The notes: generated by a model from the letters alone, not told the origin. 64,000 nucleotides of DNA from an uncultured bacterium (GCA_963749445.1 CAVVMJ010000006.1:10979-74978); one strand, 5' to 3'; counted from the stretch's first letter, positions 6,447 through 25,819 are shown. Numbers and translations are program-made.

Positions 6447-6475
6447 TTGACATAGTATATAGTTTATGCTATACT
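6447..6475 (+). promoter_or_regulatory. Promoter, TTGACA-N17-TATACT. The promoter at 13986 shares its extended -10 region, TATACTAGTAGTAA.
   Basis: Read directly from the sequence; it lies upstream of the 6571 gene. Confidence 0.45.
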
Positions 6476-6570: not shown

Positions 6571-7659
6571 ATGGGCATTTTAGATACCATCATTCATACC
6601 AAACAAAGCGAATCCCGGGCGGATTTTAAAGCCGCGGACATCGTTAAGGAATTGCTGGCCCAGCTTAAGGAGCGCGACCGGCAGATTTTGCTTAACCGCT
6701 ATGGCTTGGAAGGCAATTCCACCAAAACTTTGGCTGCCATAGGCTCAGAGCAAAACCTCACCCGCGAGCGCGTCCGCCAGATTGAAAAGGATTTGCTCAA
6801 ACACTTAAGGAAAGGCGGCGGCGCCGTGCCGGCTTTTAAGCAGGCCAAAGACTTTTTATTGGACATCATTACGGAACACGGCCGGATTATTGCCGAGGAA
6901 AATTTGCTTTTGTATTTAAACGTCCAGGATGAAAGGGAAAAGAACGCCGTGATTTTTTTGCTGCACTTGATTGAGGAACTGGAACATTTTATCCACGACA
7001 ACTACAAAAAGAGCTGGGTGGCAACGCTGTTTAATCAACAGCTGCTCCACGATTTTACCTCCGAAAGCAAAAAAATCCTGGACGAACACAAACTGCCTTT
7101 GGCCACGGAACAATTCCTGGAGCATTTTAAGCAAACCGAGTTTTACCGCCAAAACAGTTCGGAGCTCAGTGATAAAGTTATTTTGAACTTTTTGGATTTG
7201 GCGATTGATATTGAAAAAAACGTTTTTGGCGCCTGGGGACTGGCTTATTGGAAGGAAATCACGCCCAAGGATGTCGGCGACAAAGCTTATTTGGTGATGA
7301 AGCACCACGGCAAGCCGGAGCATTATTCCGGCATTACCGGGATGATCAACAAGTATAAATTTGACGGCCGCACGGCCTACAAAGAAACCGTGCATAACGA
7401 GCTGATTAAGGACAAACGGTTCATTTTAATCGGCCGCGGCATTTACGCCTTGGCGGAATGGGGCTATAAGCCCGGCGTGGTCTCCGACGTCATTGCCGAA
7501 GTCCTCAAAACCGCCGGCAAGCCCTTAAGCCGCGACCAGATCATTGACGAAGTGCTGAAAAAGCGCATGGTCAAAAAAAATACCATTTTGGTCGGCCTGT
7601 CCAACAAGAAATTATTCCGCAAAGCCGCCAAAAACGTTTACGCTTTAGCGGCAGATTAA
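6571..7659 (+). CDS. Sigma-70 region-4-like HTH domain protein
   Basis: LLNRYGLEG..KTLAAIGSEQNLTRERVRQIEKDLLKHLR matches the sigma70 region 4 pattern. Confidence 0.5.
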   Translation: MGILDTIIHTKQSESRADFKAADIVKELLAQLKERDRQILLNRYGLEGNSTKTLAAIGSEQNLTRERVRQIEKDLLKHLRKGGGAVPAFKQAKDFLLDIITEHGRIIAEENLLLYLNVQDEREKNAVIFLLHLIEELEHFIHDNYKKSWVATLFNQQLLHDFTSESKKILDEHKLPLATEQFLEHFKQTEFYRQNSSELSDKVILNFLDLAIDIEKNVFGAWGLAYWKEITPKDVGDKAYLVMKHHGKPEHYSGITGMINKYKFDGRTAYKETVHNELIKDKRFILIGRGIYALAEWGYKPGVVSDVIAEVLKTAGKPLSRDQIIDEVLKKRMVKKNTILVGLSNKKLFRKAAKNVYALAAD

Positions 7660-7676
7660 GTATCCCCAGTTTACAA

Positions 7677-7760
7677 TCGTATTTCAACTTTATTTCTATC
7701 ATATTTCAACCGTATTTTCTGATATACGATAGAAATACAATGGAAATATTAAATTACCAT
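7677..7760. repeat. Array of TAGAAATA/TATTTCTA-type inverted repeats (member A). Related copies sit at 9244, 25820 and 26236.
   Basis: cgtatttcaactttatttctatcatatttcaaccgtatt ... atacgatagaaatacaatggaaata. Confidence 0.5.
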
Positions 7761-7884
7761 TGAGACAAAAAGTAAATTCACCCGCCAAAACTTTGCGAAA
7801 AATGTTTTTGAATCTGAATACTAAATTGCATCCGTTAAAAATTAACTACGCCCAAAATAACTGGGCAAAGTTTAAGGCGGGTAA

Positions 7885-9231
7885 ATGAGCGGATTGTTTC
7901 CCGATTTTTCAGTGATTTTTAAAATTTTCAGCCAGTTCCTGGTATTTTACTACGGCTGGGTGTTTTTTGTTTTAGGCTTGGTTTACATGCTCTGGCGCCT
8001 TTACCGCACGGAAATTATGATGCAGCACTGGCGCAAACAAAAATGGGTTTTTTTAAGCATCAAAGTGCCCAGGGACAACCGCGTCAGCACCGTTGGCGTA
8101 GACAACATTTTTTCCCAGCTGCATTCTTTGCAGGTCAACAAAACTTTTATGGAAAAATACGTGGAAGGGCAATTATTCCAGCTGTGGTACAGTTTTGAGC
8201 TGGTCAGCATGGGCGGCAAAATTTCGTTTATCATCCGTTCCCCGGAACGGATGCGGCACAACGTGGAAGCGGCGATTTATTCCCAATACCCGACGGCCGA
8301 AATCAGCGAAGTCGCCGATTATATGGAAAACATTAACTACAATCCGGACAAGCCCGGGGACTTTGACATTTTCGGCACGGAATGGAAATTGGACCAGAGC
8401 GACGTCATTCCCATAAAAACCTACACGGATTTTGAGCACCCCGCGGCCGACGAAAAAATCCTGGATCCGCTCAGCCACATGTTTGAAAGTTTGGCCAAAA
8501 TGGAACCACACGAATTTTTCGGCGTGCAAATTCTTGCCATGCCCCTGGCCGACGAGGAGTGGAAACTCAAGTCCGAAACGAAAATTAAGGAACTGACCGG
8601 GGAAGAAATGCCCCATCAGCGCACCCTTGCCGGCGTGCTTTTGGCGCCGTTCGGAATCCTCGGAGGCAAGACCGCCATCCAGGCTTTCCGCGGCGGCGAC
8701 AGCCACGGCCACGGCCCGCATCCCAACGAGCAGCAAAACAAGCCGCGCAACAACTGGCTGTCCATGACCGAAGCGGAAAAAATGCGCGTGACTTTAATAG
8801 AAAATAAAGCCAATAAACCCGGCTACCGGACTAAAATCAGATTTCTGTATATTGCCCCCAAAGACAGGTTTGACCGGAGCAAGCCGTTTATGGTGGTGGG
8901 CGCTTATCGGCCCTTTTCCGCGCCGATGTACAATAAAGTCAAACCGGACATCCACACCACCTGGACGCACATTGACGCTTACATTTCCCCAACCCTGGAA
9001 AGGCCGGTTTTGGAATGGAAGCTCAAATACAAAAAACGCTGGCTGTTCAAGGGTTATAAAAAACGCGACTGGGATGTTGGCAGTCCGCTGTTTATTTTAA
9101 ATACGGAAGAATTGGCCACGCTTTACCATTTCCCGATTACCACGGAAACCACGACCGTGCATCCGGCCATTGAACAGACCTTAAGCAAGACCAGCCAGCC
9201 GCCGGCCAACTTGCCGATTGCGGAAATGTAG
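7885..9231 (+). CDS. Membrane protein with an N-terminal TM helix, encoded immediately upstream of the T4CP-like ATPase. Function unknown.
   Basis: 448-aa ORF bracketed by the TAGAAATA repeat arrays. Confidence 0.4.
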   Translation: MSGLFPDFSVIFKIFSQFLVFYYGWVFFVLGLVYMLWRLYRTEIMMQHWRKQKWVFLSIKVPRDNRVSTVGVDNIFSQLHSLQVNKTFMEKYVEGQLFQLWYSFELVSMGGKISFIIRSPERMRHNVEAAIYSQYPTAEISEVADYMENINYNPDKPGDFDIFGTEWKLDQSDVIPIKTYTDFEHPAADEKILDPLSHMFESLAKMEPHEFFGVQILAMPLADEEWKLKSETKIKELTGEEMPHQRTLAGVLLAPFGILGGKTAIQAFRGGDSHGHGPHPNEQQNKPRNNWLSMTEAEKMRVTLIENKANKPGYRTKIRFLYIAPKDRFDRSKPFMVVGAYRPFSAPMYNKVKPDIHTTWTHIDAYISPTLERPVLEWKLKYKKRWLFKGYKKRDWDVGSPLFILNTEELATLYHFPITTETTTVHPAIEQTLSKTSQPPANLPIAEM

Positions 9232-9243
9232 TTAATATCAACC

Positions 9244-9331
9244 TTATTTCTACTTATTTCGCGAAGCGTATTTCTATTGTGTTTCTGAAATACGGTTGAA
9301 ATAGAGTAGAAATAAAATAGAAATATATTGC
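9244..9331. repeat. TAGAAATA-type inverted-repeat array (member B). It ends in the conserved block ATACGGTTGAAATA..AAATAGAAATATATTGCATGC, which directly abuts the ATG at 9332.
   Basis: The same block precedes the ATG of the four-helix-bundle gene at 25853. Confidence 0.55.
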
Positions 9332-11246
9332 ATGCCCACCGATAATCAAATTACAGTTTTCGCCAAAACCAACTTCCGAGGCAGAGAAGCGCCTTTTGGC
9401 ATTAAAGCCGACGACCGGCGCCGCCACATGTACATTATCGGCAAGACCGGCATGGGTAAAACCACGCTCATGGAAAACATGGTCATTCAGGACATCCGTA
9501 ACGGTCACGGCGTGGCGTTTTTGGATCCGCACGGCGACTCTGTCCAGCGGATTTTGGATTCCGTGCCCTCCGGCCGCGTCAATGACGTCATTTATTTTAA
9601 CCCGGCGGATTTGGACTTTCCGGTTGCTTTTAACATTTTGGAATCCGTGGACCCCAAGTATAAGCACTTGGTGGCTTCGGGTTTGATGGGCGTGTTTACC
9701 AAAATTTGGGCGAATTTGTGGTCGGCCAGGATGGAATACATTTTGAATAACACGATTTTGGCTTTGCTGGACAGCCCGGGCAACACCCTTTTGGGCATTA
9801 CCCGGATGTACGTGGACAAAAAATACCGCAAACGGATTGTGGACAACGTCAAAGACCCAATGGTCCGCGCTTTTTGGGTGGATGAGTTCGCCAATTACAA
9901 CGAAAAGTACCGCACCGAAGCCATCGCGCCCATCCAAAACAAAGTCGGCCAATTTTTATCCAGCGCTATTATCCGCAACATTGTGGGCCAGCCCAAGAGC
10001 ACCATTGACTTGCGCGAAATTATGGACCAGCGCAAAATTTTGATTATGGATTTGTCCAAAGGCCGGATGGGCGAGGACAACTCGGCGCTGCTTGGCGCCA
10101 TGCTGGTGACCAAGCTGCAGCTGGCCGCCATGTCGCGCACCGACGTTGGAGGAAAAAGACCGCGAAGATTTTTACTTTTACGTGGACGAATTCCAGAATT
10201 TTGCCACGGAAAGCTTTGCCACAATTTTGAGCGAAGCGCGCAAATACCGCTTGAACCTGATTGTCGGCCACCAATATATTGCCCAGCTGGAGCAGGACAA
10301 GAGCACCAAAGTCCGCGACGCGATTTTCGGCAACGTCGGCACTATAGTAATTTTCCGCATCGGCGCCGAGGACGCGGAATTTTTGGTAAACGGAATTTGA
10401 GCCGGTCTTTACCCCCGTCTGATTTGGTGAACTTGCCCAAATACCAAATTATTTTAAAATTGATGATTAACGGCGTGGCTTCCGAGCCGTTTTCCGCCAC
10501 GACTTTGGCGCCCAAGCCCGAGCACAACACGGGCAACATCGGACAAAGTCATCAAGGTCTCGCGCGAGCGCTATAGCAATCCGGCCGCGGAAGTGGAAGA
10601 AAAAATTTCCCGCTGGATGGGCGCGGAATACCACCAGGAGTCGGCTTTGCAAATTGGCTCCGGGCAGACGGCGGAGCACCAGGAAGAGGAATCTTCTGAT
10701 AATTCAGTCAGCCCACCCGTTCCGGCGCCGCAAATTAAAAGTCCTGATATCAAAAAAGAAATGCCCGCGCCCCAACTATCAAATGAACTTGAATTTACCG
10801 ACGTAGGGGAGGGTTTAAAACCCTCCCCTACGGGGACGCAAAAAAATCAGGAACCCAAGCCCCAAAACCAGCAACGCGCCGATCGTCGTCCGGACCAACA
10901 TCGTAGCCAGCGCCAAGACCAACATAATCCCCATCGCGATAGAGAGAATCGCCGCCAATCGGATAACCGCCATCAGCAAAGCGGACAAAAGCCCAAACAA
11001 CCCGAACGCAAAGAAAACCCCATTTGGCAAACCGTACACGACATCCACAGCCAAAAACAAAAGCAAAATTCTGAGCAGACAAACCGCGCGGTGGCAAAAA
11101 TTTTCAAACCCGCAGAGCAGGTAAAAAACCCATCGGCTGATGAATTTTCGCGGCAAGATCTGTCTCCAGTTGTCCCACAACCCCCAACCCCTCCCAAACC
11201 CGCCGAGCGCACCGTCCTCAAACCCAACCAGCAATATAAAATTTAG
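9332..11246 (+). pseudogene. TraD/VirD4/TraG-family type IV coupling-protein-like P-loop ATPase. As written the gene is disrupted by four +1 frame changes at roughly 10143, 10392, 10416 and 10541. It ends in a long disordered Gln/Arg/Pro-rich tail.
   Basis: Walker A HMYIIGKTGMGKTTL..FLDPHGD in frame 2. Walker B YFYVDEFQNF and LIVGHQYIAQL in frame 0 (ORF 10146..10400). EFEPVFTP is in frame 1. SDLVNLPKYQIILKLMINGVASEPFSATTLAPKPEH is back in frame 2. DKVIKVSRERYSNPAAEVEEKISRWM is in frame 0 (ORF 10593..11246). Every shift sits at a homopolymer. Confidence 0.55.
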
Positions 11247-11567
11247 CTGGCGGGTTTGGAACGGTTTGACCAAAAATAAACCGTGGCATAAAATAGGTAA
11301 ACAACAATAACAAATATATGTTATCCACAGACGATATCAAAAAACTGACAGATTATCAAATCGAGGTTTTTAAAGATGTTTTTGCCACACAAAAAAATGG
11401 CTGATCTCCAATATTCCGTGGATTCTTTTGCCAAGGATAAGCGGACCAAAGACCAAGAAATCCCCGTCCCCGGCCGCAGAATTAAGGACGTGGGGAATTG
11501 GATAGACAAAGCCGCGCTCACAAAGTGGGCGTAAGCTTTGAACATTTTTGAACATTAGCGTTAGTTT

Positions 11568-11600
11568 TAAAAACCGCTGCCCCGAGCAGCGGTTTTTTGT
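11568..11600 (+). terminator. Intrinsic terminator AAAACCGCTGCCCCGAGCAGCGGTTTTTTG. A near-identical copy sits at 13616.
   Basis: GC stem followed by a T-run. Both copies are preceded by the identical string ttgaacattagcgttagtttt. Confidence 0.6.
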
Positions 11601-11679
11601 AAACGCGTGCGTGTGTATTATTAAATAGGTGATAGTCGGGGGAGGGCAGGGATTTTTACATTTCAGTATTCAAAAAAAT

Positions 11680-11713
11680 GTTACATTTGCGCGTACGTAC
11701 TCGCAAATGTAAC
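11680..11713. repeat. Palindrome TTACATTTGCGCGTACGTACTCGCAAATGTAA, an operator-like inverted repeat. A degenerate copy sits at 13720-13753.
   Basis: Perfect 11-bp arms around a CGTACGTAC centre. Confidence 0.5.
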
Positions 11714-11744
11714 AAAAAAAGGCTTTCAATAACGATAACAAAAT

Positions 11745-11768
11745 AATGGGTCATGTCCCCATTTGTCC
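11745..11768. repeat. Hairpin repeat AATGGGTCATGTCCCCATTTG. Further copies at 12726-12748 and 13926-13970.
   Basis: Three copies, each 100-250 nt upstream of a toxin-antitoxin cassette. Confidence 0.45.
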
Positions 11769-11874
11769 TATAAAGGTCTTGCCCAAAAAAACCGTTACTT
11801 CGGTAACGGGTTTTTTGTATTTAAAAAATTGGTGACAAATTTATGGGAATACGGGAAAGAAACTTTTGGCAAAA

Positions 11875-11919
11875 GTTGATGGCTTGTGCAAAATGCCAAA
11901 TGTCCAGACTTGACCCCCC
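11875..11919. repeat. About 50-nt repeat GTTGATGGCTTGTGCAAAATGCCAAATGTCCAGACTTGACCCCCC (rep50 copy 1 of 4). Other copies at 12895, 13791 and 14701. Its GTCAAGACTTGACCCC core is REP-like and also forms the terminal repeats of the Y1 transposase.
   Basis: Found by direct sequence comparison. Confidence 0.6.
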
Positions 11920-11994
11920 TTTCCTATCCTTTCCCAAGAAAACAGAGTTTACGCCGGACTTTTCAAAATCGCCATTTTATGATACCATACGGGT

Positions 11995-12276
11995 ATGAAT
12001 ATAGAAGAAATTAAAGTTAAAATTACCCCGATACTTTTAAGGCACGGGGTCAAGCGTGCCGCGGTTTTTGGCAGTGTGGCCAGGGGAGAGGAGCGGCCGG
12101 ACAGCGATGTTGATGTGGTTATAGAAATATCCAGACCGTACGGATTGTTTGAGTTTGTGGAGATAAAGCACGGTATGGAAGATACTTTGGGCAAAAAAGT
12201 TGACTTAGTTGAGTATAGTTCCATTAAACCCAGAATCAAAGATAATATCATCAAAGACCAAGTGCGGATATTATGA
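11995..12276 (+). CDS. Nucleotidyltransferase (MntA-type antitoxin of an MNT/HepT pair)
   Basis: GS..RG....SD.D sequence AAVFGSVARGEERPDSDVDVVI. Confidence 0.7.
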   Translation: MNIEEIKVKITPILLRHGVKRAAVFGSVARGEERPDSDVDVVIEISRPYGLFEFVEIKHGMEDTLGKKVDLVEYSSIKPRIKDNIIKDQVRIL

Positions 12277-12617
12277 TTAATCCGGGCGCGAGAGGATACC
12301 TTGAAGATATTTTGGAAGCTTTGGAAAAAATCCAAAGATATGTCTTTGGTATGTCCCTGGAACAGTTTAGGAATGATGAAAAGACGCAAGATTCAGTTAT
12401 TCGGAATTTTGAAATCATCGGCGAGGCGGTTAAGCGCATTTCAGAGGAATTTAAGAACAGCCACCCCGAAGTTCCATGGCGCTCCGCCGCGGGGATGAGA
12501 GACGCTTTGATTCATGATTATCCTAATATTGTGGCGGATGTTGTCTGGAAAACTGCGGTGGAAGATTTGCCGGTATTTAAAAAACAGATTACCGGATTAC
12601 TGAAGGATAATCCGTAA
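12273..12617 (+). CDS. HepT-like (DUF86) toxin
   Basis: It overlaps the MNT gene by 4 nt. RNFEIIGEAVKRISEEFK..PEVPW..GMRDALIHDY matches the HepT/DUF86 pattern. Confidence 0.7.
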   Translation: MINPGARGYLEDILEALEKIQRYVFGMSLEQFRNDEKTQDSVIRNFEIIGEAVKRISEEFKNSHPEVPWRSAAGMRDALIHDYPNIVADVVWKTAVEDLPVFKKQITGLLKDNP

Positions 12618-12894
12618 GGTTGGCGATTATTGTAAAATATCAAATGTCAAAATTTGACCCCCTGACGTTTAAGATTTGACCCCTGACGATGGGCGGTAAG
12701 ATATCCCGGCAAGCCAAAAGCTAAATAATGGGCCATGTCCCCATTTGCATTTGTCATCTTTGAGCATTAATATCACTTTTAAGAACCGCTTCTTATAGGG
12801 CGGTTTTTTGTTTTTGTCCAATTTTGAAATAACGCGCAGCCGAGCGTAAAGTCAACAAGGGTAATTTAGTGGGGGACGCATTATTTAAAACAAG

Positions 12895-12950
12895 ATGGTA
12901 AAAGCTGATGGCTTGTGCAAAATGTCAAAAATTCGGACTTGGCCCCCTGA
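12895..12950. repeat. rep50 copy 2
   Basis: GCTGATGGCTTGTGCAAAATGTCAAAAATTCGGACTTGGCCCCCTGACC. Confidence 0.55.
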
Positions 12951-12997
12951 CCTTGATACTTCCAGAAGTTCTGCTATAATACCACCAATAAACCTTT

Positions 12998-13288
12998 ATG
13001 AATTTAGAACAAATCAAGAAAAAAGTCAGCCCTGTGCTTCGCAAATACCGAGTGGAATACGCGGGTGTTTTTGGTTCGGTTGCCAGAGGCCAGGCGCGGC
13101 CGGACAGCGACGTGGATCTTTTGGTCAGGTTTGAAAAGGTTCCGAGCTTAGTGCAGTTTATCCGAATGGAAAACGAGCTTAAAGAAACATTGCGGACTAA
13201 AGTTGATGTGGTGGTGCAGGGTTCGGAAAAATTTCTTATTAAGCCCGGCATTGAAAAAGACTTAGCTTTACTTTATGGACAGAGATGA
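12998..13288 (+). CDS. Nucleotidyltransferase (MntA-type antitoxin), a paralog of the 11995 gene
   Basis: GVFGSVARGQARPDSDVDLLV. Confidence 0.7.
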   Translation: MNLEQIKKKVSPVLRKYRVEYAGVFGSVARGQARPDSDVDLLVRFEKVPSLVQFIRMENELKETLRTKVDVVVQGSEKFLIKPGIEKDLALLYGQR

Positions 13289-13598
13289 ACAATACAAACA
13301 GGATATTTTGGAAGCGATTTCCAAAATTGAGCAATCCGCGGCAGACTTGACTTATGAAAGTTTTGTAAACGATGCCGATACCTTTGACGCCTGTGTCAGG
13401 CGCTTGGAGATTATAGGAGAAGCAGTTAAGCGTTTATCCGGCGACATTAAAGACAAGGCACCGGACGTTCCCTGGAAAGAAATCGCGGGCTTTCGGGATA
13501 AAGCGATCCATGATTATGCGAGTTTAAATGCCGCCATTGTATGGGAAACTATCCGCACCGACGTACCGCAACTTAAAGCGGCTTTGTTGAAGCTTTGA
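13275..13598 (+). CDS. HepT-like (DUF86) toxin, a paralog of the 12273 gene
   Basis: RRLEIIGEAVKRLSGDIKDKAPDVPWKEIAGFRDKAIHDY. Confidence 0.7.
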   Translation: MDRDEQYKQDILEAISKIEQSAADLTYESFVNDADTFDACVRRLEIIGEAVKRLSGDIKDKAPDVPWKEIAGFRDKAIHDYASLNAAIVWETIRTDVPQLKAALLKL

Positions 13599-13615
13599 AC
13601 ATTAGCGTTAGTTTT

Positions 13616-13648
13616 AAAAATCGCTGCACCAAGCAGCGGTTTTTTGTA
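13616..13648 (+). terminator. Intrinsic terminator, a copy of the one at 11568
   Basis: AAATCGCTGCACCAAGCAGCGGTTTTTTG. Confidence 0.6.
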
Positions 13649-13790
13649 AAAATGCCGGTTGTTTAATATACGCGAGGTATTTCAGCGGAAAGTGCTCTTC
13701 TTGGGATGTGCAAAATATTGTTACATTTGCGCGTACGTACGCGAAAACGCAACAAAGGGGAAAAAGATTTGTAACGGATTTATTTTGAAA

Positions 13791-13836
13791 GTTGATGGCT
13801 TGTGCAAAAATGTCCAATGTCAAGACTTGACCCTCT
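13791..13836. repeat. rep50 copy 3. Its core contains the perfect palindrome GTCAAGACTTGAC.
   Basis: GTTGATGGCTTGTGCAAAAATGTCCAATGTCAAGACTTGACCCTCTG. Confidence 0.55.
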
Positions 13837-13847
13837 GTTTATTTAAT

Positions 13848-13920
13848 GGCGACAAAGTTAGGCTTAAATTCCACTTTAAGACGTCGCGGTGACCTAAAAA
13901 AGGTTCCTGACACCTTTTTC
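13848..13920. repeat. About 70-nt repeat GGCGACAAAGTTAGGCTTAAATTCCACTTTAAGACGTCGCGGTGACCTAAAAAAGGTTCCTGACACC (rep70 copy 1). Copy 2 is at 14804-14878.
   Basis: Two near-identical copies flank the HigBA cassette. Confidence 0.6.
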
Positions 13921-13985
13921 TTCCTAATGGGTCATGTCCCATTTGTCCTCCTTTGTCCCATTTGTCATTCCTGCTTTTTGCCCAC

Positions 13986-14013
13986 TTGACAGGCATATCT
14001 TATATGATATACT
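13986..14013 (+). promoter_or_regulatory. Promoter TTGACA-N16-TATACT with the TATACTAGTAGTAA extension
   Basis: Shares its extended -10 with the 6447 promoter. It lies 20 nt upstream of the higB-like start. Confidence 0.45.
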
Positions 14014-14032
14014 AGTAGTAAAATAAACACTT

Positions 14033-14398
14033 ATGGACGAATATAAAATTACGTTTTTTTATAATCCGGATACGGGGAAAATTCCGGTTCGGGAGTACTT
14101 GGACGGCATCGCCCAAAAGGAAAGGGCTAAAATTTTAAAGTACATTGAATTTTTAAGGGAACACAAAGGCGTACTTGATGAGCCATATGCCAAGCATATT
14201 CGGGATAAAATCAGGGAATTGCGCGTGGATTTTGGCGGAAACAGGCATCGAGTTTTCTTTTTTACTTTTGTCGGAAAAAATATTATTCTGCTCCACGCTT
14301 TTCTTAAAAAAACCACGGCAACTCCGGAATCGGAAATAGGCAAAGCGTTAAACAATTACCATCAAATTATTAATAACCCAAAGCTTTATGAAAACTAG
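14033..14398 (+). CDS. HigB-like toxin (Gp49/RelE-ParE superfamily)
   Basis: Pattern ..REYLD..KERAKIL..I..L..LRVDFGGN.HRVFF..GKNIILLHAFLKKT..TP..EI, followed by a 3'-overlapping HTH antitoxin gene. Confidence 0.6.
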   Translation: MDEYKITFFYNPDTGKIPVREYLDGIAQKERAKILKYIEFLREHKGVLDEPYAKHIRDKIRELRVDFGGNRHRVFFFTFVGKNIILLHAFLKKTTATPESEIGKALNNYHQIINNPKLYEN

Positions 14399-14687
14399 AA
14401 TAAGTCTAAAAAAATCAATAAGCTTTCAGGCTTACTTAAAAGCCCAGCTTAAAAATCCGCAAGTTAAAAAACATTACGATGAAGCCGGCAAGCGCTTAGA
14501 AATCGCTTATCAAGTGATTCAGTTGCGCAAGGAGGGAGGGGTATCCCAGTCGCAATTGGCGAAAAAACTGGGTACAACGCAAAGTAATGTTGCCCGCATA
14601 GAAGCCGGACAGCAAAATTTTACCGCAGAAACTTTGCAGAAAATCGCAAAAGCATTCCGGCGCGATTTGCGCATTGAATTTGTCTAG
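14388..14687 (+). CDS. XRE-family HTH antitoxin (HigA-like)
   Basis: LRKEGGVSQSQLAKKLGTTQSNVARIE helix-turn-helix. Confidence 0.6.
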   Translation: MKTRISLKKSISFQAYLKAQLKNPQVKKHYDEAGKRLEIAYQVIQLRKEGGVSQSQLAKKLGTTQSNVARIEAGQQNFTAETLQKIAKAFRRDLRIEFV

Positions 14688-14700
14688 AAGCGGTTAAAAA

Positions 14701-14746
14701 GCTGATGATTTATGTAAACTGTTCAATGTCTAGACTTGGCCCCCTA
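14701..14746. repeat. rep50 copy 4 (degenerate)
   Basis: GCTGATGATTTATGTAAACTGTTCAATGTCTAGACTTGGCCCCCTATCGC. Confidence 0.45.
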
Positions 14747-14803
14747 TCGCTTCTCTATGAAAAGAGGTGGCCCACTAGGAAAAGATTCCTGGGTAACTGT
14801 GAT

Positions 14804-14878
14804 GGCGACAAAGTTAGGCTTAAATTTCACTTTAAGACGTCGCGGTAGACCTAAAAAAGGTTCCTGACACCTTTTCTT
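14804..14878. repeat. rep70 copy 2
   Basis: GGCGACAAAGTTAGGCTTAAATTTCACTTTAAGACGTCGCGGTAGACCTAAAAAAGGTTCCTGACACC. Confidence 0.6.
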
Positions 14879-15102
14879 TGTCCAAAAAAAACAGGACCGG
14901 CGTTCCACAGGGGGAACGTCGGTCCGCGAGTTTGCCAGTTATTTGTGCCTGCGTTGGGCGCACCCGCTGGAACGGGGCTAGTAGGAGGCGACATACAGCG
15001 TCCCTCCGCTGACAGCCAGGTAAATGTTGTCGGAGAGCCGGGCAGTGCCCAGGTCAACTTGGCTCATTGCGCCGGCTGATAATGAGATACGATATACGAT
15101 AC

Positions 15103-16186
15103 GGGGTCAAGTCTATATTCTTGACAAAATATATTTGAGTTGATATTGTTTGATTATGGCCAGACCATTAAGAATAGAATACGAAGGTGCTTTTTATCAT
15201 GTTATTAATCGTGGTCTGGAACGCCGGGAAATATTCCGCCAGCCTAAAGACTACGAATATTTTTTAGGGCTGCTCGAATATATATACGAGAAATACGGAG
15301 TTATCGTTTACGCCTTTTGCCTAATGCCTAATCACTACCATCTATACCTCCAAACTCCCCAGGGAAACTTAAGCAAAGCCATGCGCCAGTTAGATGGCAA
15401 CCATACTCAGAAATTTAATAAACGCTATAAGAGAGTAGGCCCGCTGTTTCAAGGGCGTTACAAGGCAGTTTTAGTAGACAGCGACAGTTATTCCCTGCAA
15501 TTGGCCAAATATATCCATTTAAATCCTGTCAAAGCCAAACTAATACAAAAGCCCGAAGATTATCAACATTCCAGCTACTCCTCATATATCGGTAAAACCA
15601 AAGCCCCGATATTTCTTAACACTAAATGGGTGCTTTCTCAATACGCCAAGTCAAAAGGTAAAGCTGTTAAAGAGTTAAAAAAGCATACACTCGAAGCCCA
15701 AGAGGAAGATTGGGAGCCCGAAAAAGATACTTTTAAGAGCTTGATTTTAGGTGGCAGTGATTTTGTTAACCAAATACAGGAAGAATTTTTACAGGGAAAA
15801 GAAAATTTTGAAATTCCTAAGCTTAAAGCTGTTCAAAAAGTTTTATCCGCGCATGAAATAATTGCTAAAATTGACAGGCTTAAATTGGGTGAAAATGACA
15901 AGACCAAAATTATTGTTTACGCGTTAAAGAGGTACAGTCCGTTGACCTTAAAAGAGATAGGGGAGCAGTTTAATAATTTGCATTATTCCGCTGTCGCACA
16001 GATACTCATCCGACTGCAAAAGAAATTATCTACAGATAAACAGCTTGCAAAAACTGTCATTGAGGTTGATAAACTGTTTAACAATAAGTTAAAAATATAG
16101 ACTTGACCCCATATTCATATTCAAAAACTGTCATTGAGGTTGATAAACTGTTTAATAAGTTAAAAATATAGACTTGACCCCATATT
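15103..16186 (+). mobile_element. IS200-like / REP-associated-type Y1 (HuH) transposase element. Left terminal repeat GGGGTCAAGTCTATA at 15103-15117, right terminal repeat TATAGACTTGACCCC at 16096-16110, and a 62-67-nt tandem duplication of the right end (16050-16116 and 16125-16186).
   Basis: The terminal repeats are exact reverse complements of each other. The same core occurs in the rep50 copies scattered upstream. Confidence 0.6.
15150..16100 (+). CDS. Y1 HuH transposase (IS200/IS605-type or REP-associated tyrosine-transposase-like) with a roughly 170-aa C-terminal extension
   Basis: YHVINRG..ERREIF..DYEYFL..YAFCLMPNHYHLYL (the HuH motif) ..GPLFQGRYKAVLV..YIHLNPVKA..HSSYSSY. Confidence 0.7.
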   Translation: MIMARPLRIEYEGAFYHVINRGLERREIFRQPKDYEYFLGLLEYIYEKYGVIVYAFCLMPNHYHLYLQTPQGNLSKAMRQLDGNHTQKFNKRYKRVGPLFQGRYKAVLVDSDSYSLQLAKYIHLNPVKAKLIQKPEDYQHSSYSSYIGKTKAPIFLNTKWVLSQYAKSKGKAVKELKKHTLEAQEEDWEPEKDTFKSLILGGSDFVNQIQEEFLQGKENFEIPKLKAVQKVLSAHEIIAKIDRLKLGENDKTKIIVYALKRYSPLTLKEIGEQFNNLHYSAVAQILIRLQKKLSTDKQLAKTVIEVDKLFNNKLKI

Positions 16187-16354
16187 GACTATAACCGGCG
16201 GGGGCGGATAAATCAGCTTTAAACTTTTCCCGCCAAAATTTAAATTTAAGTTTTAGCGGAAAATGTGCTAAAATATAATCCCTATTGAATAGGGATTTAA
16301 ATATTTTGATGATATTTTTGGCTTAAGTAAAAGTAATTTTAAATTGAGGGGTTA

Positions 16355-16383
16355 TTGACAAAACTGTTTTAAAGTAGTATAAT
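16355..16383 (+). promoter_or_regulatory. Strong consensus promoter TTGACA-N17-TATAAT
   Basis: Read from the sequence; about 290 nt upstream of the 16671 gene. Confidence 0.4.
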
Positions 16384-16670
16384 ATAAAGTTAAATTGTAA
16401 AAAAATCTTTTATTAACTCTTATTAACTTTAGGATTTTTACGCCGGATAAATTTTAGATGGATATTTTTCAAACTCACGGCAGGCGAACTTAAATAAGGT
16501 TGAGGAGTAACGGATAGTTTTGTTTTCCTGCCATGCGTTTGATGATAGCAATTAGTTTGGCTTATTGTTAAAGCGCTAAAAATCAAGGAGGCCTATTGCG
16601 GGCTCAATATTCTGAGTGATTTGGGTATAATTTTTGTACCCGGTTCGCTCAGAAGTATTGGGCAAATAGT

Positions 16671-17429
16671 TTGCAAGGGAGTATTCAAATGATGAAGACG
16701 TTTTCCCTCGCGGTGCTCACCGCGATTCTCGCGCTGGCTGTTATGCCAAGCGCTTCCGCTCAGGGCTTCAGCGCTGTGACGCTGGACGCTTCGGCCGTAA
16801 GTTCTCACGGCGCGTGCCTGGTCGGGCAGATTGTGCCCAAGCCTGGCGCGTCAGTGGCAGGGGCCACACCGTATACGCAATTCGTTTACAACCCGGACTC
16901 GCCGCCGACGCCGAGTAATGGCGTAGGCGCCCCGTATGTCAGTCAATATGCACCCTCCGACGGGACAGGCCCGGTCGTGATGGATGTGGTTTCTTGCATC
17001 GGTCCGATTTTGCCAACGACCACGTATTATTTCAAGCTGACGGGCTCAACTAATTTCTACGTGGCCGGCAACGTGGTGACGTTCACAACCCTCGATGAGG
17101 GAGCTCCCTTCATCGATCCGGGATATGGCACCAAGCCCATCCCCGGATCCGGCAATCTCAAGGGTTGCGCGGGCTGTCAGGTCGCCGTGGTCGGGGAGAA
17201 CTTTGGGCCCTTGACCCAAGTTTACTTCAACGACACGCCGATCGATCCTAGCCTCGTATATGTCACCTTTGACCGACTACTCACCTTCCAACTTCCCGAC
17301 CGGCTTCCAGTCGGCTCGGTGTGGACCGTCCGGGTCGTGAACAACGGCCTAAGGTCAAACAGCGTCCCGCTCGTGGTCATCCCGGCGTCGGTCGCAAACG
17401 CGACCCCGAACCCCCCGAACACGAGGTGA
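16671..17429 (+). CDS. Secreted protein with a signal peptide and a C-terminal IPT/TIG-like domain. GC-rich relative to its flanks.
   Basis: Signal LAVLTAILALAVMPSASAQG. C-terminal VAVVGENFGP..VYFNDTPI..VTFDRLLTFQLP..VWTVRVVNNGLRSNSVPLVV. Confidence 0.45.
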   Translation: MQGSIQMMKTFSLAVLTAILALAVMPSASAQGFSAVTLDASAVSSHGACLVGQIVPKPGASVAGATPYTQFVYNPDSPPTPSNGVGAPYVSQYAPSDGTGPVVMDVVSCIGPILPTTTYYFKLTGSTNFYVAGNVVTFTTLDEGAPFIDPGYGTKPIPGSGNLKGCAGCQVAVVGENFGPLTQVYFNDTPIDPSLVYVTFDRLLTFQLPDRLPVGSVWTVRVVNNGLRSNSVPLVVIPASVANATPNPPNTR

Positions 17430-17700
17430 CGCCGCCATGCCACTTCGCCATCAACCTCGGGCGTGCCCCCGCATGCACGTCCGAGCGCAACACAGAGGGC
17501 CACCACCCAAGTATTTCTCGGTGGCCCTCTTTTTTTGTTTAAAAATATGTTAATTGCATCAATCAGGCCGAATATTTGCGATAATTGACAGGTGGATTGA
17601 TTTACGATTATACTATAAATACCATTCTTTTCCAGACTTTTCAATAGCTTGATTTTGTTCTATAATAAATTATACACATTAAGTTCCATGTTTTATCTCC

Positions 17701-18291
17701 ATGGACCAAAATTTAGAAACAAACCCACAACCAAATAATCTTAATACCGCCCCGAATGTCGGTGGCGGCAATTATCCTGTCCCTCCGGTTCCCATCCCCA
17801 GTAGCCACCACAGGAAAATCTGGATTATTATAGTTATAATAATTTTGGCTGTTTTGGCAGTCGCGATTTTTGCAGCAGTAAATAAAAAATATCAATGGGG
17901 AATAAATAACTTCGCAGTTAATTCCCCGCAAACCCTTAAAAATTTAGTAATCCCGGTTTCGTCGGACGAAGTCAGAAGATATTTTTTCACAGCAGGATCG
18001 GGTACTTTATTGTTACACGAAGACAGTCAGCAACAAGGGAATGTGGCTAGTTTCATTTTAAATTTTGTGAGTGGGCTGACGGTAACCGAGGCCGTGACCA
18101 GTTATGAGAACCTTTTTAAGAACAGCGACTGGACGTATACATTGAATAAAAATAATACCGACCTACTTGTGTCAATGCATGCGACTAATAAAGATGGAAC
18201 ACAGGGGGCTATTATAAGACTTGCGAAAAATGGCGCGGACAAAGAAGCCAATATATTAGTAATTTATTATATCGCAAAGAAAGGGAGTTAA
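17701..18291 (+). CDS. Membrane-anchored hypothetical protein
   Basis: Pro-rich N-terminus, then a TM helix IWIIIVIIILAVLAVAIFAAV. Confidence 0.35.
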   Translation: MDQNLETNPQPNNLNTAPNVGGGNYPVPPVPIPSSHHRKIWIIIVIIILAVLAVAIFAAVNKKYQWGINNFAVNSPQTLKNLVIPVSSDEVRRYFFTAGSGTLLLHEDSQQQGNVASFILNFVSGLTVTEAVTSYENLFKNSDWTYTLNKNNTDLLVSMHATNKDGTQGAIIRLAKNGADKEANILVIYYIAKKGS

Positions 18292-18295
18292 TAAT

Positions 18296-21200
18296 ATGGC
18301 AACACCCAAAACAAAATTTGCTTTGTTCACTTTCGTTATTGTGATGGGCTTGTTTTTATTTATTCCCTTTGCGTACGGTTGCACTGAAGGGGACAGTTGT
18401 ATCTATGCTAGCGACCCGCCGCCAGTAATGTATGGGATTTGTCTGTCAGGATCGTGCGTTTGGAACGGCCCCGCCCCAGCTCCTACTGGGGACGGTTGTC
18501 ACTCTGATGCAGATTGCCAAGCTTTGGATCCATATCCCGCATCTTGCTCCGACAGTTATTGCATGCCCCCTGATTGTCACTTTTATATAACAGGCGACTG
18601 CGGAGGGACTACTCCACCTCCTCCTTCCTGCACCGGCGATTCTGATTGCACCGGCGGCGCGCGTTGCCGAAACGGAGTTTGCACCACTGCTTGCACCATA
18701 GCCTGCAACAGCAATTCGGATTGCGGGACGGATGAGTGGTGCGACGTCCCGGGTTCTTGCGGTTCCTATTGCGTGTCTGATTTTACGCACAGCGTATGTG
18801 AAGGCTCTTCCTGTAGGACATATTCAGGCCCCGGCAGCCAAGACTGTAATTCCGAGGCCGACTGCGTCCCCACTCAAACCTGCGTCAACGACGGCATTTG
18901 CCACAGCGGGGAAACCTGCAGTCTTTGCCCCGTTGATTGCGGCGCCTGCATTGTTAACGGAGCCTGCCAAAATCCTCCCAACGGCAACATCTATGTTACG
19001 GCTCCGACCGGCACTTTATGCAGTAGCGGCATCGCTAGCCCTTCCACCCTTAGCGGCAGCGGCCCCTGGTCTTGGCAATGTACCAGCCCTAACGGTGGCA
19101 CCACTGCTTCCTGTTCCGCCTCCGTTCCCAATCAGCCCACGGCCCACATTACCGCTACCCCCGACTTCCTGCCAAGCCCAGGAGGCCCCACCCAACTTTA
19201 TGCGACTTTTACCAATGCCAATAATTGTTATGTGACTTCCAGCCCCACTGTGGACGCGGGGTTCTGGACAACGCTTGGGCCATACACATACAATCCTTAC
19301 ATAAACATCTCCGATGTAACCCAAACTACCGTTTTTACCGAAACCTGCACCTATAACAGCCCGGCTTATCCCTACTACATTCTTGGCCCCGTGACCAGTT
19401 CCGTGACGGTCAGTGTCGGTACAATCATTGGAACTTTAACCCCCTGCGAAACCGATATGTGTGCCATGACTTATTATGGCGACGGGACAAATCCGGCCAA
19501 CGCCACCTATCTTTACTATCCGTCCCATGATCAAATGATTTCCAGTTATTGTATTCCAGTATACGACAATTGCAGCAGCCCGGCTTACAACATCAACGGC
19601 ACGAATTATTGGATTAGGGAAGGCGGCAAAGACACATCAACCTGCTTAAATTTGCGAGCATCGCCTCCGGCCTGCGCTCCTGCCACCGCCAGTTTGACGG
19701 TTAACACGGCTTATGGTTCGGCCAGCAACAGCGGCAGCGTTTACACCCACGGCTACAACGACACCCCGACCCTGACCTGGTCATCCACCAACGCCAATTC
19801 TTGTACCTTAACCAGCAACAACAGTGACAGTAAAGCCGGCACCAACGGCACCAATGTGCCGGCCAATAGTTTAGGCAACGACAGCGGATCCGGACATGTT
19901 TGGACTTACACGCTAAGCTGCACCGGCAACGGCGGCAGCGGCAGCGCTTCCGTTAATGTTATTATCCCGCCCGCCCCGACTAACGTTATTATGATCACTC
20001 CCTCCGGATGCGGAACCAACGGCACCACTTTGGGTTTTCACTGGACCCTGCCGCTTGGCTACAGCACTTCTTATGTCAGGGTACACGACGACACCGCCGG
20101 CACCTATTTAGCTCTTAGTGATTCAACTTATGCCTCCACCAACTGGAGCGGCACCTCTGTTCCCGGACACACCTATTCCGACTGGTTCCACACCTCGGTT
20201 CCTTCCGGCGCCTACAGTATGGCAGCTTCCGGTCCGGCGGTTACCTGTAACAATCCTGGACCCAGTGTTACGCTTGCGGCCAATCCAAACCCCGTAAACT
20301 ACAACAGCCCGGCGACTTTAAGCTGGACTATATCTAACGCCACTGCCTGTACCGACGTCAACGGCAATATGCCGGCGGGCAACTGGAGCAGCGGCCAAAG
20401 CGGCAGCGCCTCTACCGGAAATTTGACGGCTTCCCAAACCGATGTGTTAACCTGCACCGGTCCCGGAGGCAGCGACACCAATGGCGTGGTGGTTAATGTT
20501 CTCCCTCCCGCCCCTACTCTTTCCGCCGCCACCTCCGGCGCCTGCGGCGGCAAGATCAGCGTATCCTGGAACAATGCTGCGGGCGCCACCAGCTATAACC
20601 TCTACCGCGACGGCTCTTCTATCAATTCCAACGCGACCAGTACTTATATAGATAGCGGTTTGGTTTTTGGTAGTTCCCACAACTACAAGGTGGTTGCCGT
20701 AAATTCCGCGGGCAATTCCCCTGATTCCAACACAGCCTCGGCCACCGCTTCGGCCGCCTGCGCGGTTAACAGCCCTCCGGTGGCCGTTGCCACCATTTCC
20801 AAAGACGGTTCAACTTACGCCAACAGCATTACTGTGGCTCAAGGCGTTTCAACCCACGTCTATTTGGCGGCCAGCAAAGGCGCGGGCAGTTCCGATCCCG
20901 ACGGCTGGGCCGATGCCAACTTTGGCGTCTCAAGCGGCGGCAAATGCGACTGGAACAGTGACCTTAACCAGGGCGCGCCGACTTACGAAACTACCGTTAA
21001 CAGCCCGGCCTCGGCCGCGGCTTGCGACATTGATTTGGGCAATAAAACCTTTAACGACACCGTTGGCACCTACACCTATTCCGTCCTGAGGATTACGGAC
21101 AAGCCGGGCGCGGTTTCCAACATCGCCACCGTGCAGGTGACGGTAGTCGCCGGCCCTCCGGGCGGCGGCGGCGGCGGTTCGTTGACCGCGACGGCAGGAG

Positions 21201-22393: not shown

Positions 22394-22489
22394 AATAATT
22401 GACATAATTTAAAAGATTGACATAATTGACAAGAATGTCGGCAAAGGCGGATTCGCCTTATCGTTAAAATAATCAATGACTAAAAGATT

Positions 22490-22996
22490 ATGCACAGAAA
22501 CAAAATTATGATCAAAAAATATTGGGCGCCCCTGCTAATTCTGGTTTTGCTGGTTATTATCACAGTCGCGGCCAAAGTCCTGCCCAAGCGGCAAGCTGTG
22601 CCCAATTCTGCTTCCAAGCCTTCGGCCAGTTCTCAAGCCCAAACCCCTCCCCCGATGCCCCAGGTGGCGGCTGTGCCTCCGGCCAAGGTGCCGCCGGGCC
22701 TGCCTGCCAACCTGCCCTGGGAAAAAGGCGCCACTATCCTTCAGAACTTCACGGCCAAAGACCCTGTCTCCGGCAAAACCCAGTCCACGCGGGAGTACGT
22801 TAGCGCCAAGAGCCTGGATGACAATTTTAGCGTTTACCAAAAGTATCTAAAGGATAACGGCTGGACCGTGGTCTCCGGCATTAGCCAGCCCACCATCAAG
22901 AACCTTTCCGCCGCCAAAGCCGGTGCCCGCCTGGACGTGACCATATCCAAAACCCCGGACAACAAAGTTACGGTCATTGTCAGCTACGTGGATTAA
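22490..22996 (+). CDS. Membrane-anchored hypothetical protein with a Pro/Ala-rich linker
   Basis: N-terminal TM helix ILVLLVIITVAA. No recognisable domain. Confidence 0.35.
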   Translation: MHRNKIMIKKYWAPLLILVLLVIITVAAKVLPKRQAVPNSASKPSASSQAQTPPPMPQVAAVPPAKVPPGLPANLPWEKGATILQNFTAKDPVSGKTQSTREYVSAKSLDDNFSVYQKYLKDNGWTVVSGISQPTIKNLSAAKAGARLDVTISKTPDNKVTVIVSYVD

Positions 22997-23045
22997 CGAA
23001 AATTAAAATCCCTCGGAGAAATCCGAGGGATTTTAAAATATTTGT

Positions 23046-23366
23046 TTATAAGATAGTATTCAACTGCGCGACTATCGTCGCTTTGGGAGCCGCGCCGATA
23101 AGTTCGCTCACCAGTTTCCCGTTTTTGAAAAATTTCAGCGTCGGAATGCTCATCACGTTGTACTTCATCGCGAGATTATTGTTCTCATCCACGTTGACCT
23201 TGCCGACTTTGAGCTTGCCCGCGTATTCTTTGGCCAATTCTTCCACCAGCGGGCTCAAAACCTTGCACGGGCCGCACCAGACCGCCCAAAAATCCACCAG
23301 CACCGGCAAATCGGAAGCCAAAACTTCTTTGTCAAAATTTTTTTCGTTTAGCACAACTTCGGACAT
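23046..23366 (-). CDS. trxA: Thioredoxin. The start is assigned to the internal Met MSEVVLNEK, which has an upstream purine-rich site. The listed ORF extends further upstream.
   Basis: WAVWCGPCK active site with a thioredoxin fold. Confidence 0.8.
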   Translation of the reverse strand: MSEVVLNEKNFDKEVLASDLPVLVDFWAVWCGPCKVLSPLVEELAKEYAGKLKVGKVNVDENNNLAMKYNVMSIPTLKFFKNGKLVSELIGAAPKATIVAQLNTIL

Positions 23367-23619
23367 AAGTTTTTTTGTTACTTTTAAAGTGATACTAATA
23401 TACCCGTCTCGGTTGAAGGCACAAACCGAGGTCGGACGAATGGCATAGTAATGATACGAATTCGTGTCATTCGCGAGTATTCGTGAATTAGCGTCGCCAT
23501 TAAATCTTATCCACAATCGGAATCTTTGTCAACCCGGAAACCCAACATTTAATATGATATAATTATAAGGGAAATTAACTTTTATCCATAGCAAAATTTA
23601 TCGAAAAACCAAAACCCAG

Positions 23620-24603: not shown

Positions 24604-24620
24604 ATCAAAGCCGTTTAAAA

Positions 24621-25817: not shown

Positions 25818-25819
25818 AG

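Follow-up and report, generated by a model that had tools for sequence, protein, structure and literature searches.

Two dense arrays of short inverted repeats lie beside the genes for a membrane protein and for an ATPase resembling type IV coupling proteins (T4CPs) in a 64,000-nucleotide stretch of DNA from an uncultured bacterium (GCA_963749445.1, CAVVMJ010000006.1:10979-74978; hereafter the window). Our analysis of these arrays (A and B), built of TAGAAATA/TATTTCTA units, indicates that they are probably the arms of small, apparently mobile cassettes that carry no transposase and are related in design to the intervening sequences (IVSs) of 23S rRNA genes. In its full form, the element would consist of a forward arm of 8- to 11-nt units with a GAAAY core, an open reading frame (ORF) running from ATG to stop for a four-helix-bundle (4HB) protein, and a mirrored reverse arm, the whole being co-oriented with its surroundings in operon spacers and abutting the neighboring stop and start codons with its ends. 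Arrays A and B would then be gene-less arm pairs of the same family that have landed or grown in two spacers of a conserved Patescibacteria operon. The arrays belong to one repeat family, whose gene-bearing member displays an insertion polymorphism, which recurs in many contexts and phyla, and whose two arms co-vary.

The repeat unit is 11 nt long and combines a GAAATA core with a linker that approximates nnGT[T/A]. Array A starts 20 nt past the stop codon of a HARE-HTH gene with a reverse arm (7677-7720) that comprises TATTTC[AT]A units at 7680, 7691 and 7702, a degenerate one near 7712, and the reverse complement of ATACGGTTGAAATAtgaTAGAAATA. Its forward arm (7721-7760) holds TAGAAATA at 7730 and TGGAAATA at 7741, with GAAATA units at 7732 and 7743, and is separated from the ATG of the DUF8128 membrane protein gene by ~125-135 nt of native leader; the 3' part of this spacer is common to the related contig L110. 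Array B starts 13 nt past the DUF8128 stop codon, again with the reverse arm (9235-9286; four TATTTC-type units at 9245, 9255, 9269 and 9279). This arm contains a TATTTCGCGAAGCGTATTTC segment with a GCGAAGC mini-hairpin, which is also present in Bacteroidota loci (L007, L015, L020 and L023). The forward arm (9287-9331) has four GAAATA units with an 11-nt period (9287, 9298, 9309 and 9320) and is separated from the ATPase ATG by TATTGC. The original prediction had located both arrays correctly, as seen from unit counts and from TRF, which reports period-11 repeats at 7674-7717 (4.0 copies), 7724-7748 (2.3 copies) and 9286-9325 (3.6 copies). Moreover, a contig from an independent short-read Logan assembly (ERR10755942) is 100% identical over window positions 7255-9781, so that A and B are not assembly artefacts.

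The clustering of the repeat is far from random. The 14-mer ATACGGTTGAAATA has three exact occurrences in the window and six matches when up to two mismatches are allowed, for 0.67 expected and with 0/100 shuffles attaining six, and 14 of the 24 T[AT]GAAATA/TATTTC[AT]A 8-mers of the window fall inside 250 nt (binomial P ~4e-28). As originally noted, the block abutting the ATPase start codon recurs at the start codon of a distant 4HB gene (25853), where it is followed downstream by its inverted partner (26245-26281; period 10 and 3.8 copies in TRF). More exactly, the block before 9332 is the block before 25853 (array C) plus exactly one 11-nt unit, both being otherwise near-identical through ATTG[C/T]ATGC. 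All four arm sets, A to D, have GA[AT]ATACGGTTGAAATAnnnTAGAAATA in common. The terminal inverted repeats and the multiple copies by which miniature inverted-repeat transposable elements (MITEs) are recognized are both found here, with four arm sets of one family in 64 kb and gene-less copies in other genomes.

The gene-bearing copy of the family lies between a MraY-like gene and an amidohydrolase gene. Its forward (5') arm, array C (25818-25852, plus strand), consists of ATACGGTTGAAATAaaaTAGAAATAaattgt directly before the ATG and includes two forward units, the last of which ends 6 nt before the start codon. The enclosed gene (25853-26236, plus strand) encodes a 127-aa 4HB protein of the 23S rRNA intervening-sequence protein family, with matches to PF05635 (2.2e-16) and TIGR02436 (8.3e-16). 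The reverse (3') arm, array D (26237-26280, plus strand), carries four TATTTCTA-type units that begin 8 nt past the stop codon and end 4 nt before the amidohydrolase ATG. At the same junction, the relative L004 is empty (GGTTAA/TTTTATGTAC), whereas precisely this point is occupied in the window by an insert of 463 bp (25818-26280). The ends of the insert are the outermost units of C and D, and it is against the empty site that the boundary of C was set. A second relative, L003, has a gene-less GAAATA-type hairpin between its MraY and amidohydrolase genes. The GC content of the 4HB cargo is 0.406, compared with 0.49-0.50 for the flanking genes. Arrays C and D together with the 4HB gene make up one such apparently mobile element. 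The earlier suggestion that the blocks might mark the ends of a small mobile unit is borne out for the 4HB gene, both by the 463-bp insert absent from a relative and by the recurrence of the gene-plus-arms unit across contexts and phyla.

This recurrence is apparent from the relatives of the window 4HB protein, 1,192 of which were listed at E <= 1e-5. Two homologues, P0122 (L024) and P0130 (L026-28), sit in other gene contexts within the same arms, including ...TAGAAATAcaATTGTATG. The L024 gene is preceded by TAGAAATAcagTAGAAATAcaaTTGAAATAaaTAGAAATAcaATTGTATG, and mirrored TATTTCTA-type units reach the ATG of the next gene; in L026-28, the cassette is found between a Peptidase_S24-like gene and a gene for an LTD protein, and its units are more degenerate. 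A metagenome scan with an alignment of 37 4HB sequences gave 80 loci, from which 63 non-redundant ones with at least 100 nt on either side were retained for statistics. Among these, the 66 nt upstream of the gene contain on average 3.46 forward cores (GAWAY) versus 0.22 reverse ones, and the 66 nt downstream 3.10 reverse cores versus 0.54 forward ones; 34 of the 63 loci combine at least three forward cores upstream with at least three reverse cores downstream. The forward units mostly end 1-12 nt before the ATG, and the reverse arm sets in at the stop codon itself in 18 loci. The unit varies from locus to locus (GAAATA, GAAACT, GAAATT, GATATT or GATACT), as does its period (8-11 nt). Nevertheless, the two arms of a locus co-vary: their complementarity scores 33.7, while arms drawn from different loci reach 21.7 and shuffled sequences 16.4 (Wilcoxon p = 5e-7). 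The 4HB gene is co-oriented with its upstream neighbor in 48 of 51 cases and with its downstream neighbor in 44 of 49, with short gaps. One cassette was even retrieved from an antiporter operon in a metagenome-assembled genome (MAG) of Ca. Anammoxibacter (Planctomycetota), with a protein 63% identical and six units per arm. A search of plasmids for 4HB relatives returned one distant match only.

Gene-less arrays comparable to A and B exist in other phyla. The 25-mer ATACGGTTGAAATAnnnTAGAAATA, which matches A (as its reverse complement), B and C, has 22 specified bases, and we estimate that chance alone would give ~0.07 matches in 596 Gb of uniform composition and ~1 in strongly AT-rich sequence. 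In the species-representative genome set, it matches 18 loci, none of them in Patescibacteria; the hosts are Algoriphagus, Cyclobacteriaceae, Spirosoma, Saprospiraceae, Sphingobacteriales, Mongoliibacter and one Omnitrophota. Each of the 18 is an array of 3-7 forward units lying between genes, and in 13 of them mirrored reverse units follow after a short loop. The cores are often separated by small GC-rich hairpins (GCGAAGC among them), as is also the case in array B and in several 4HB cassette arms. With tblastn, no 4HB ORF was found in or beside these arrays, the loops of which are too short to hold one. Orthologous junctions keep the array across species, with a changing number of units and a changing loop (L014/L017 and L007/L010/L020). 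A phage vector was considered and set aside, the 25-mer having 0 matches in IMG/VR. A generic search for four GAAATA with 11-nt spacing hit 51 viral loci, nearly all plain tandem repeats, and was discarded as unspecific. Perfect 11-nt GAAATA tandem repeats proved common in AT-rich MAG contigs of giant viruses (IMG/VR, L111-L161), where they have no mirrored arm and are unrelated to the element. In a few phage contigs (L112/L130/L155, L114/L138 and L126), reverse units of the GATTTCTT type do come after forward GAAATA units.

The same architecture is also used by a second, unrelated cargo. At 58366-58865 (plus strand), between a PIN gene and a UvrD/AddA-like helicase gene, a GxxExxY/PDDEXK_3 gene (58433-58813; TIGR04256 and PF13366) is preceded by five CGAAA(C) units and followed by five (G)TTTCG units. 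The GC content of this cassette is 0.344, versus 0.42-0.47 in its flanks. GxxExxY genes of two other loci (L059 and L031) are likewise enclosed by units of their own, CGCTGATA and CACTAAAT, and no GxxExxY relatives were found in viral contigs.

The mechanism that we propose for the 4HB cassettes borrows from the IVSs of rRNA genes. In Coxiella, the terminal repeats form a 28-bp stem that RNase III cuts, an S23p (4HB) ORF occupies its loop, and two or three tandem heptamers, in strain-variable number, lie directly upstream of the ATG of this ORF (PMC4990558). The cassettes resemble the S23p IVSs of Coxiella burnetii and Leptospira (PMC4990558) by their cargo family (PF05635/TIGR02436), by an ORF set between complementary termini forming a stem, by tandem direct repeats of variable copy number at the ATG, by a poor or absent Shine-Dalgarno sequence and by being regarded as selfish elements. 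They differ in that each arm, 5' and 3', is a long array of 8-11-nt GAAAY units, in the existence of gene-less copies with an exact unit sequence across phyla, and in a cleavage by RNase III that is, in their case, predicted. They also reside in spacers of protein operons and not in helix 25 or 45 of 23S rRNA: the window cassette lies between MraY-like and amidohydrolase genes and, according to Rfam, 0/40 related 4HB loci fall in an rRNA gene, so that the cassettes are not IVSs in the strict sense. By analogy with the Coxiella and Leptospira elements, the arms would pair in the operon transcript as an imperfect stem of ~25-30 bp with the ORF looped out, and RNase III would cut this stem and remove or process the cassette while leaving the flanking cistrons intact. 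Insertion would thus be harmless to the flanking genes, and expression of the cargo would be controlled. For A and B, this model would leave no role beyond that of intercistronic hairpins serving transcript processing or stability, if they have any effect at all. In a predicted fold of 25810-26290, C pairs with D in both the minimum-free-energy and the centroid structure, with the ORF looped out. Array A (7671-7760) folds at -17.3 kcal/mol (z = -4.6) and the hairpin of array B (9240-9331) at -24.7 kcal/mol (z = -4.1), the z-scores of the A and B hairpins ranging from -4.1 to -6.3 on either strand. We favor an IVS-like mechanism because of the cargo, the ORF-in-loop design, the tandem units at the ATG and the C-D fold.

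Besides the absence from rRNA genes, several observations weigh against mobile cassettes of the IVS type. The fold of 25810-26290 is not unusually stable (z = -1.6). A wobble test counted 85 arm mismatches of the G:U type and 114 of the A:C type on the sense strand; this lack of a G:U excess speaks against selection acting on the stem at the RNA level, and fits copying or recognition at the DNA level at least as well as RNA pairing. The exact identity of units across phyla also appears to ask for more than an RNA stem. There is no target-site duplication when the empty site (GGTTAA/TTTTATG) is set against the filled one, a weak negative with one such pair, and no mobility enzyme or transposase was identified among the window ORFs scanned, which were not all of them. 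Finally, the order of the arms is a problem for A and B themselves. A census over 501 kb (the window plus the fetched loci) gave 43 cases of forward-gene-reverse, 23 of forward-loop-reverse and two of reverse-forward, and these two are A and B. Plain loss of the ORF cannot yield a reverse-then-forward order, and none of the deletion, inversion and tandem-cassette scenarios that we considered fits unless host genes sit between arms. In array B, the 6-nt spacing to the ATPase ATG and the ATTG[C/T]ATG motif are as in the 4HB cassettes, as if host genes held the cargo position of adjacent cassettes.

We also put forward, tentatively, a wider reading. The IVSs found in rRNA may be a small part of a much larger class of cassettes that spans phyla and lacks a transposase, made of a short ORF (4HB or GxxExxY nuclease) enclosed from ATG to stop by co-evolving arms of 8-11-nt units, in which the encoded protein would recognize the units of its own arms for copying, excision or maintenance, and of which A- and B-like pairs would be non-autonomous members. 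The reverse-then-forward order could then mean that host genes become enclosed between arms.

The main rival, which we regard as rather unlikely, holds that the arrays work at the DNA level as protein-binding sites, their units being predicted targets of the encoded 4HB pentamer or of a host factor. By covering both arms, this protein would serve autoregulation, maintenance or mobility, in the manner of omega-protein heptads, ParR on parC or transposase sites, and the arms would be complementary simply because they carry one unit in opposite orientations. Avd-type 4HB proteins, such as the Avd of diversity-generating retroelements, bind nucleic acids, which counts in favor of this explanation. 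It is also in line with the lack of a G:U excess between arms, with the 10-11-nt period of most arrays, close to one helical turn, with the exact unit GAAATAcggtTGAAATA common to Patescibacteria, Bacteroidota and Omnitrophota, and with unit variants (GAAATA, GAAACT, GATATT and GATACT) that change jointly in both arms of a locus. However, the period ranges from 8 to 11 nt among loci and helical phasing is not conserved, the unrelated GxxExxY/PD-(D/E)XK cargo has the same architecture with other units, and gene-less arrays persist without an adjacent 4HB gene. The comparison with known arrays of this kind (R1 parC/ParR, omega heptads and plasmid iterons) is similarly divided. Short direct and inverted repeats of about one helical turn by gene starts are shared features, but the arrays described here have no rep or par genes nearby, are not retained at this locus by relatives, have a period that varies from 8 to 11 nt between loci and also flank, in many genomes, an unrelated small gene. 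Binding by the HARE-HTH protein encoded next to array A is rejected, since L004, although free of arrays, has a version of it with 80% identity.

Less probable still, in our opinion, is that a transposase or recombinase supplied from another locus recognizes the arms as multi-site terminal inverted repeats, the 4HB and GxxExxY genes being passengers and A and B non-autonomous copies or footprints of a MITE-like element. The filled versus empty site, the gene-less copies with the same ends, the GC-poor cargo and the fast turnover between close relatives would all be expected from such an element. On the other hand, the sole site with an empty allele has no target-site duplication, no transposase was identified among the window ORFs scanned, and the array persists at orthologous Bacteroidota junctions (L014/L017 and L007/L010/L020); furthermore, the many unit sequences would need as many cognate enzymes, which is implausible in genomes of ~1 Mb. 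Palindromic families such as REP/BIME, Correia, RUP and MITE-like elements share with the cassettes a short AT- or GC-rich palindromic nature, a location in spacers and operons, the formation of hairpins and a patchy distribution among relatives. In contrast to them, the cassettes have arms made of tandem short-unit arrays and not of one imperfect palindrome, their full-length form holds a conserved small ORF exactly within its two arms, and no RAYT/transposase or target-site duplication was identified. Integron cassettes (ORF plus attC) are another possible parallel, since they too are promoterless, small, co-directional ORFs with imperfect palindromes between genes, and adjacent cassettes would give a reverse-then-forward junction like that of array B. 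They differ in having one attC per ORF where the elements studied here have two arms, and the flanks of the latter are conserved syntenic housekeeping genes. An integrase or attI is not evident among the window ORFs scanned, although no search was aimed at them.

Neutral growth is also a lesser rival, and a very unlikely one. AT-rich quasi-palindromes would expand by replication slippage and intrastrand template switching, functionless and immobile, and the 4HB gene would tend to insert in their loops. Spacer palindromes built of other units are indeed numerous in the window and in L002, L003 and L110, the number of units differs between copies, and mismatches are symmetrical at the DNA level. 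Three of the window palindromes contain no ORF, namely 29412-29492 (z = -6.4), 45564-45674 and 46069-46176 (z = -7.1); their units are ACTAA, GGTTATA and ACTAAAT/ACGAAAT, and they are located at the Mur ligase/FtsW junction and at atpB/atpF junctions. Against a neutral origin, exact 25-mers are common to several phyla, the ORF is tightly and consistently enclosed from ATG to stop in 63 loci, and the cassette recurs with its arms in different contexts.

The original prediction had the arrays bracketing the membrane protein and ATPase genes, possibly as a shared operator or an iteron-like replication or partition site, with the same block driving the 4HB gene. The bracketing does not hold, A being upstream of the membrane gene and B between the genes, with no array downstream of the ATPase. 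More importantly, the relation to the module fails in the relatives. Five contigs (L002, L003, L004, L109 and L110), with DUF8128 proteins 63-79% identical to that of the window, keep the order HARE-HTH, DUF8128, ATPase, and in the longer ones the module lies between secD-secF and a series of thioredoxin, Peptidase_S11, MraY-like, amidohydrolase, Mur ligase and FtsW genes. L004 has tight spacing at all three junctions (33, 3 and 4 nt), with neither arrays nor a 4HB gene. In L109 (79% identity), the spacer measures 23 nt at site 1 and 90 nt at site 2, the latter being free of GAAATA units. In L002, L003 and L110, the same junctions carry palindromes of other tandem units (ATATACAAAT, ATACGGA, TAGGTCT, ACTAAA and CAGATAC). 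Since the junctions differ in all five, the spacers of the module operon appear to turn over fast while the proteins stay, and arrays A and B, judged from these sequences, have no specific relation to the T4CP module.

Scans of the arrays with the sigma-70 consensus gave 3 and 7 promoter-like sites versus ~2.7 +/- 1.5 in shuffles, which is not an excess, and no site uses array units in sense orientation with good hexamers. Near-consensus promoters of the form TTGACA-N17-TATACT, unlike the arrays, are present at 6447-6475, 13986-14013 and 17585-17614, and the sequence suggests that the organism uses a conventional sigma-70-type promoter. Promoter-like motifs of the wider form TTGACA-N16-18-TATACT/TATAAT/TACAAT precede several genes, at 493-520 and 16355-16383 as well as at these three positions. 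Because promoters lie elsewhere, the arrays have no sigma-70 excess and no skew switch occurs, we infer that A and B are situated inside a transcription unit starting at ~6475. As a replication origin, iteron or partition site, the arrays are rejected for the lack of a GC-skew switch, of replication or partition genes nearby and of conservation in relatives. Rfam (E <= 10) returned only chance-level microRNA and sRNA matches over 7500-9500, which dismisses a known RNA family. The block is not a lineage-typical, AT-rich promoter or ribosome-binding-site context either, but a member of a specific repeat family. Control of the T4CP/membrane pair and of the 4HB gene from a shared operator, promoter, iteron or partition site is therefore hardly credible: the forward arms do abut two start codons with an identical 6-nt spacing and TTGAAA-N16-TAGAAA pairs do arise within array B, but the corresponding junctions of 5/5 syntenic, module-bearing relatives have no arrays or different ones, sigma-70-like sites are not in excess, the operon has its own near-consensus promoter (6447-6475), there is neither a GC-skew switch nor any replication gene nearby, and 4HB genes occur between the same arms in dozens of unrelated contexts.

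The module in whose spacers A and B lie comprises three co-directional genes on the plus strand: a gene for a protein with Sigma70_r4 and HARE-HTH domains (6571-7659), the DUF8128 membrane protein gene (7885-9231; 448 aa) and the gene for the T4CP-like (VirD4/TraD/TrwB-type) ATPase (9332-11246). The DUF8128 protein has an N-terminal hydrophobic segment (residues 14-37) and is assigned to PF26449 from a precomputed domain hit, a separate Pfam scan having given none. It has 1,777 homologues at E <= 1e-5, and those with a source name come from Patescibacteria-type MAGs. The ATPase is not a single ORF as had been proposed: its frame shifts by +1 four times through single-base insertions near 10148, 10392, 10414 and 10541. 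Each of these insertions doubles a base or extends a C run. After correction, the protein is T4CP-like and 636 aa long, with the domains TrwB_AAD_bind (9.4e-16), T4SS-DNA_transf (6.8e-5), TraG-D_C (1.3e-7) and DUF87, and its best PDB sequence matches are DotL and TrwB. It has no hydrophobic 19-residue window, hence no transmembrane segment, and its Walker A motif begins near residue 37. Where the contig reaches that far, the relatives have intact orthologues of 587-635 aa. The Mur ligase (two shifts) and the C-terminus of FtsW (one shift) are frameshifted as well compared with the proteins of a relative, which makes assembly indel errors the probable cause of the ATPase frameshifts, rather than a true pseudogene. 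The regions affected are 10140-10545 (ATPase), 27907-29385 and 30527-30616.

An AlphaFold (AF2) model of DUF8128 (pLDDT 77) was compared with PDB structures by Foldseek, and the top 13 matches were all TrwK/VirB4 chains (E 1.5e-5 to 1.7e-3, TM 0.33-0.37). As DUF8128 has no P-loop, the likeness of the model points to the N-terminal half of VirB4/TrwK. DUF8128 and the ATPase may form a split, membrane-anchored VirB4/T4CP-like machine, for which the modeled structure is suggestive only. The ATPase is akin to T4CPs (VirD4/TraD/TrwB/DotL) by its TrwB_AAD_bind, TraG-D_C and DUF87 matches, but it differs from them in lacking a transmembrane domain of its own, the membrane segment being on the adjacent DUF8128. 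It also differs in its neighborhood, both in the window and in the relatives, as the module is set between secDF and cell-wall/division genes and no relaxase or type IV secretion system (VirB4) gene was seen among the genes tabulated for L002-L004 or in the part of the window ORFs that was scanned. That a lone T4CP would be unusual, as first thought, is contradicted by the abundance of DUF8128 homologues and by a survey of 2,918 Patescibacteria genomes, in which only 148 of 5,713 VirD4-like T4CPs are near virB4 (PMC12102498); given this survey, the lone T4CP is the rule in Patescibacteria. The membrane protein/T4CP pair itself is kept in all five relatives, where it follows the HARE-HTH gene, and a Sigma70_r4 plus HARE-HTH gene always precedes it. 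Downstream of the ATPase, ~12 kb (11247-23619) separate it from the Peptidase_S11 gene, at a place where L003 and L004 have only a thioredoxin gene. This segment, which includes a nucleotidyltransferase gene (11995-12276) and a 1,365-aa ORF (18296-22393), probably represents an insertion or a variable region.

The genome is unusually rich in structured repeats between genes. At least four families of GC-rich, REP-like hairpin repeats, for instance CATCCCGGAATTTTTTGCGC...GCAAAAAATATCCGGGAT and TTGATGGGCA...TGCCCATCAA, occupy spacers of the window (33058-33216, 44568-44699 and 49303-49415; 24604-24773 and 39568-39716; 28346-28395, 45960-46010 and 47316-47360; 43997-44120, 46739-46904 and 53491-53643). 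A tandem ATAATTGAC/ATTGACATAATTGAAAAG repeat of ~4 copies (22395-22434) is present in the spacer upstream of the gene at 22490. Within coding sequence, CTTAGCC/AGGGCTAAG heptamer repeats make up a palindrome inside the UvrD/AddA-like helicase ORF (59401-59470), and a similar heptamer run occurs at 50098-50131 in the ORF 49718-50524.

To conclude, the elements are best regarded as IVS-like cassettes outside rRNA, with arms of tandem units and with gene-less derivatives across phyla. No description of operon-resident cassettes or of the shared unit sequence turned up in open-access PubMed Central and bioRxiv; subscription journals are largely absent from these sources, and this result does not prove novelty. 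By 2016, the 23S rRNA IVSs had been known for more than 25 years, yet their origin and mobility were still considered unclear (PMC4990558). The 4HB (TIGR02436) and GxxExxY (TIGR04256) proteins are encoded by very common small genes of unknown function. If such genes generally travel between co-varying arms in operons, the arms would provide a simple search key for the elements, which would gain a testable model opposing an RNase III-cut stem to protein-bound arms. Many odd AT-rich, iteron-like spacer arrays, including the two by the ATPase, would also be explained, and annotators should be cautious not to read such arrays as regulators of the gene that they abut.

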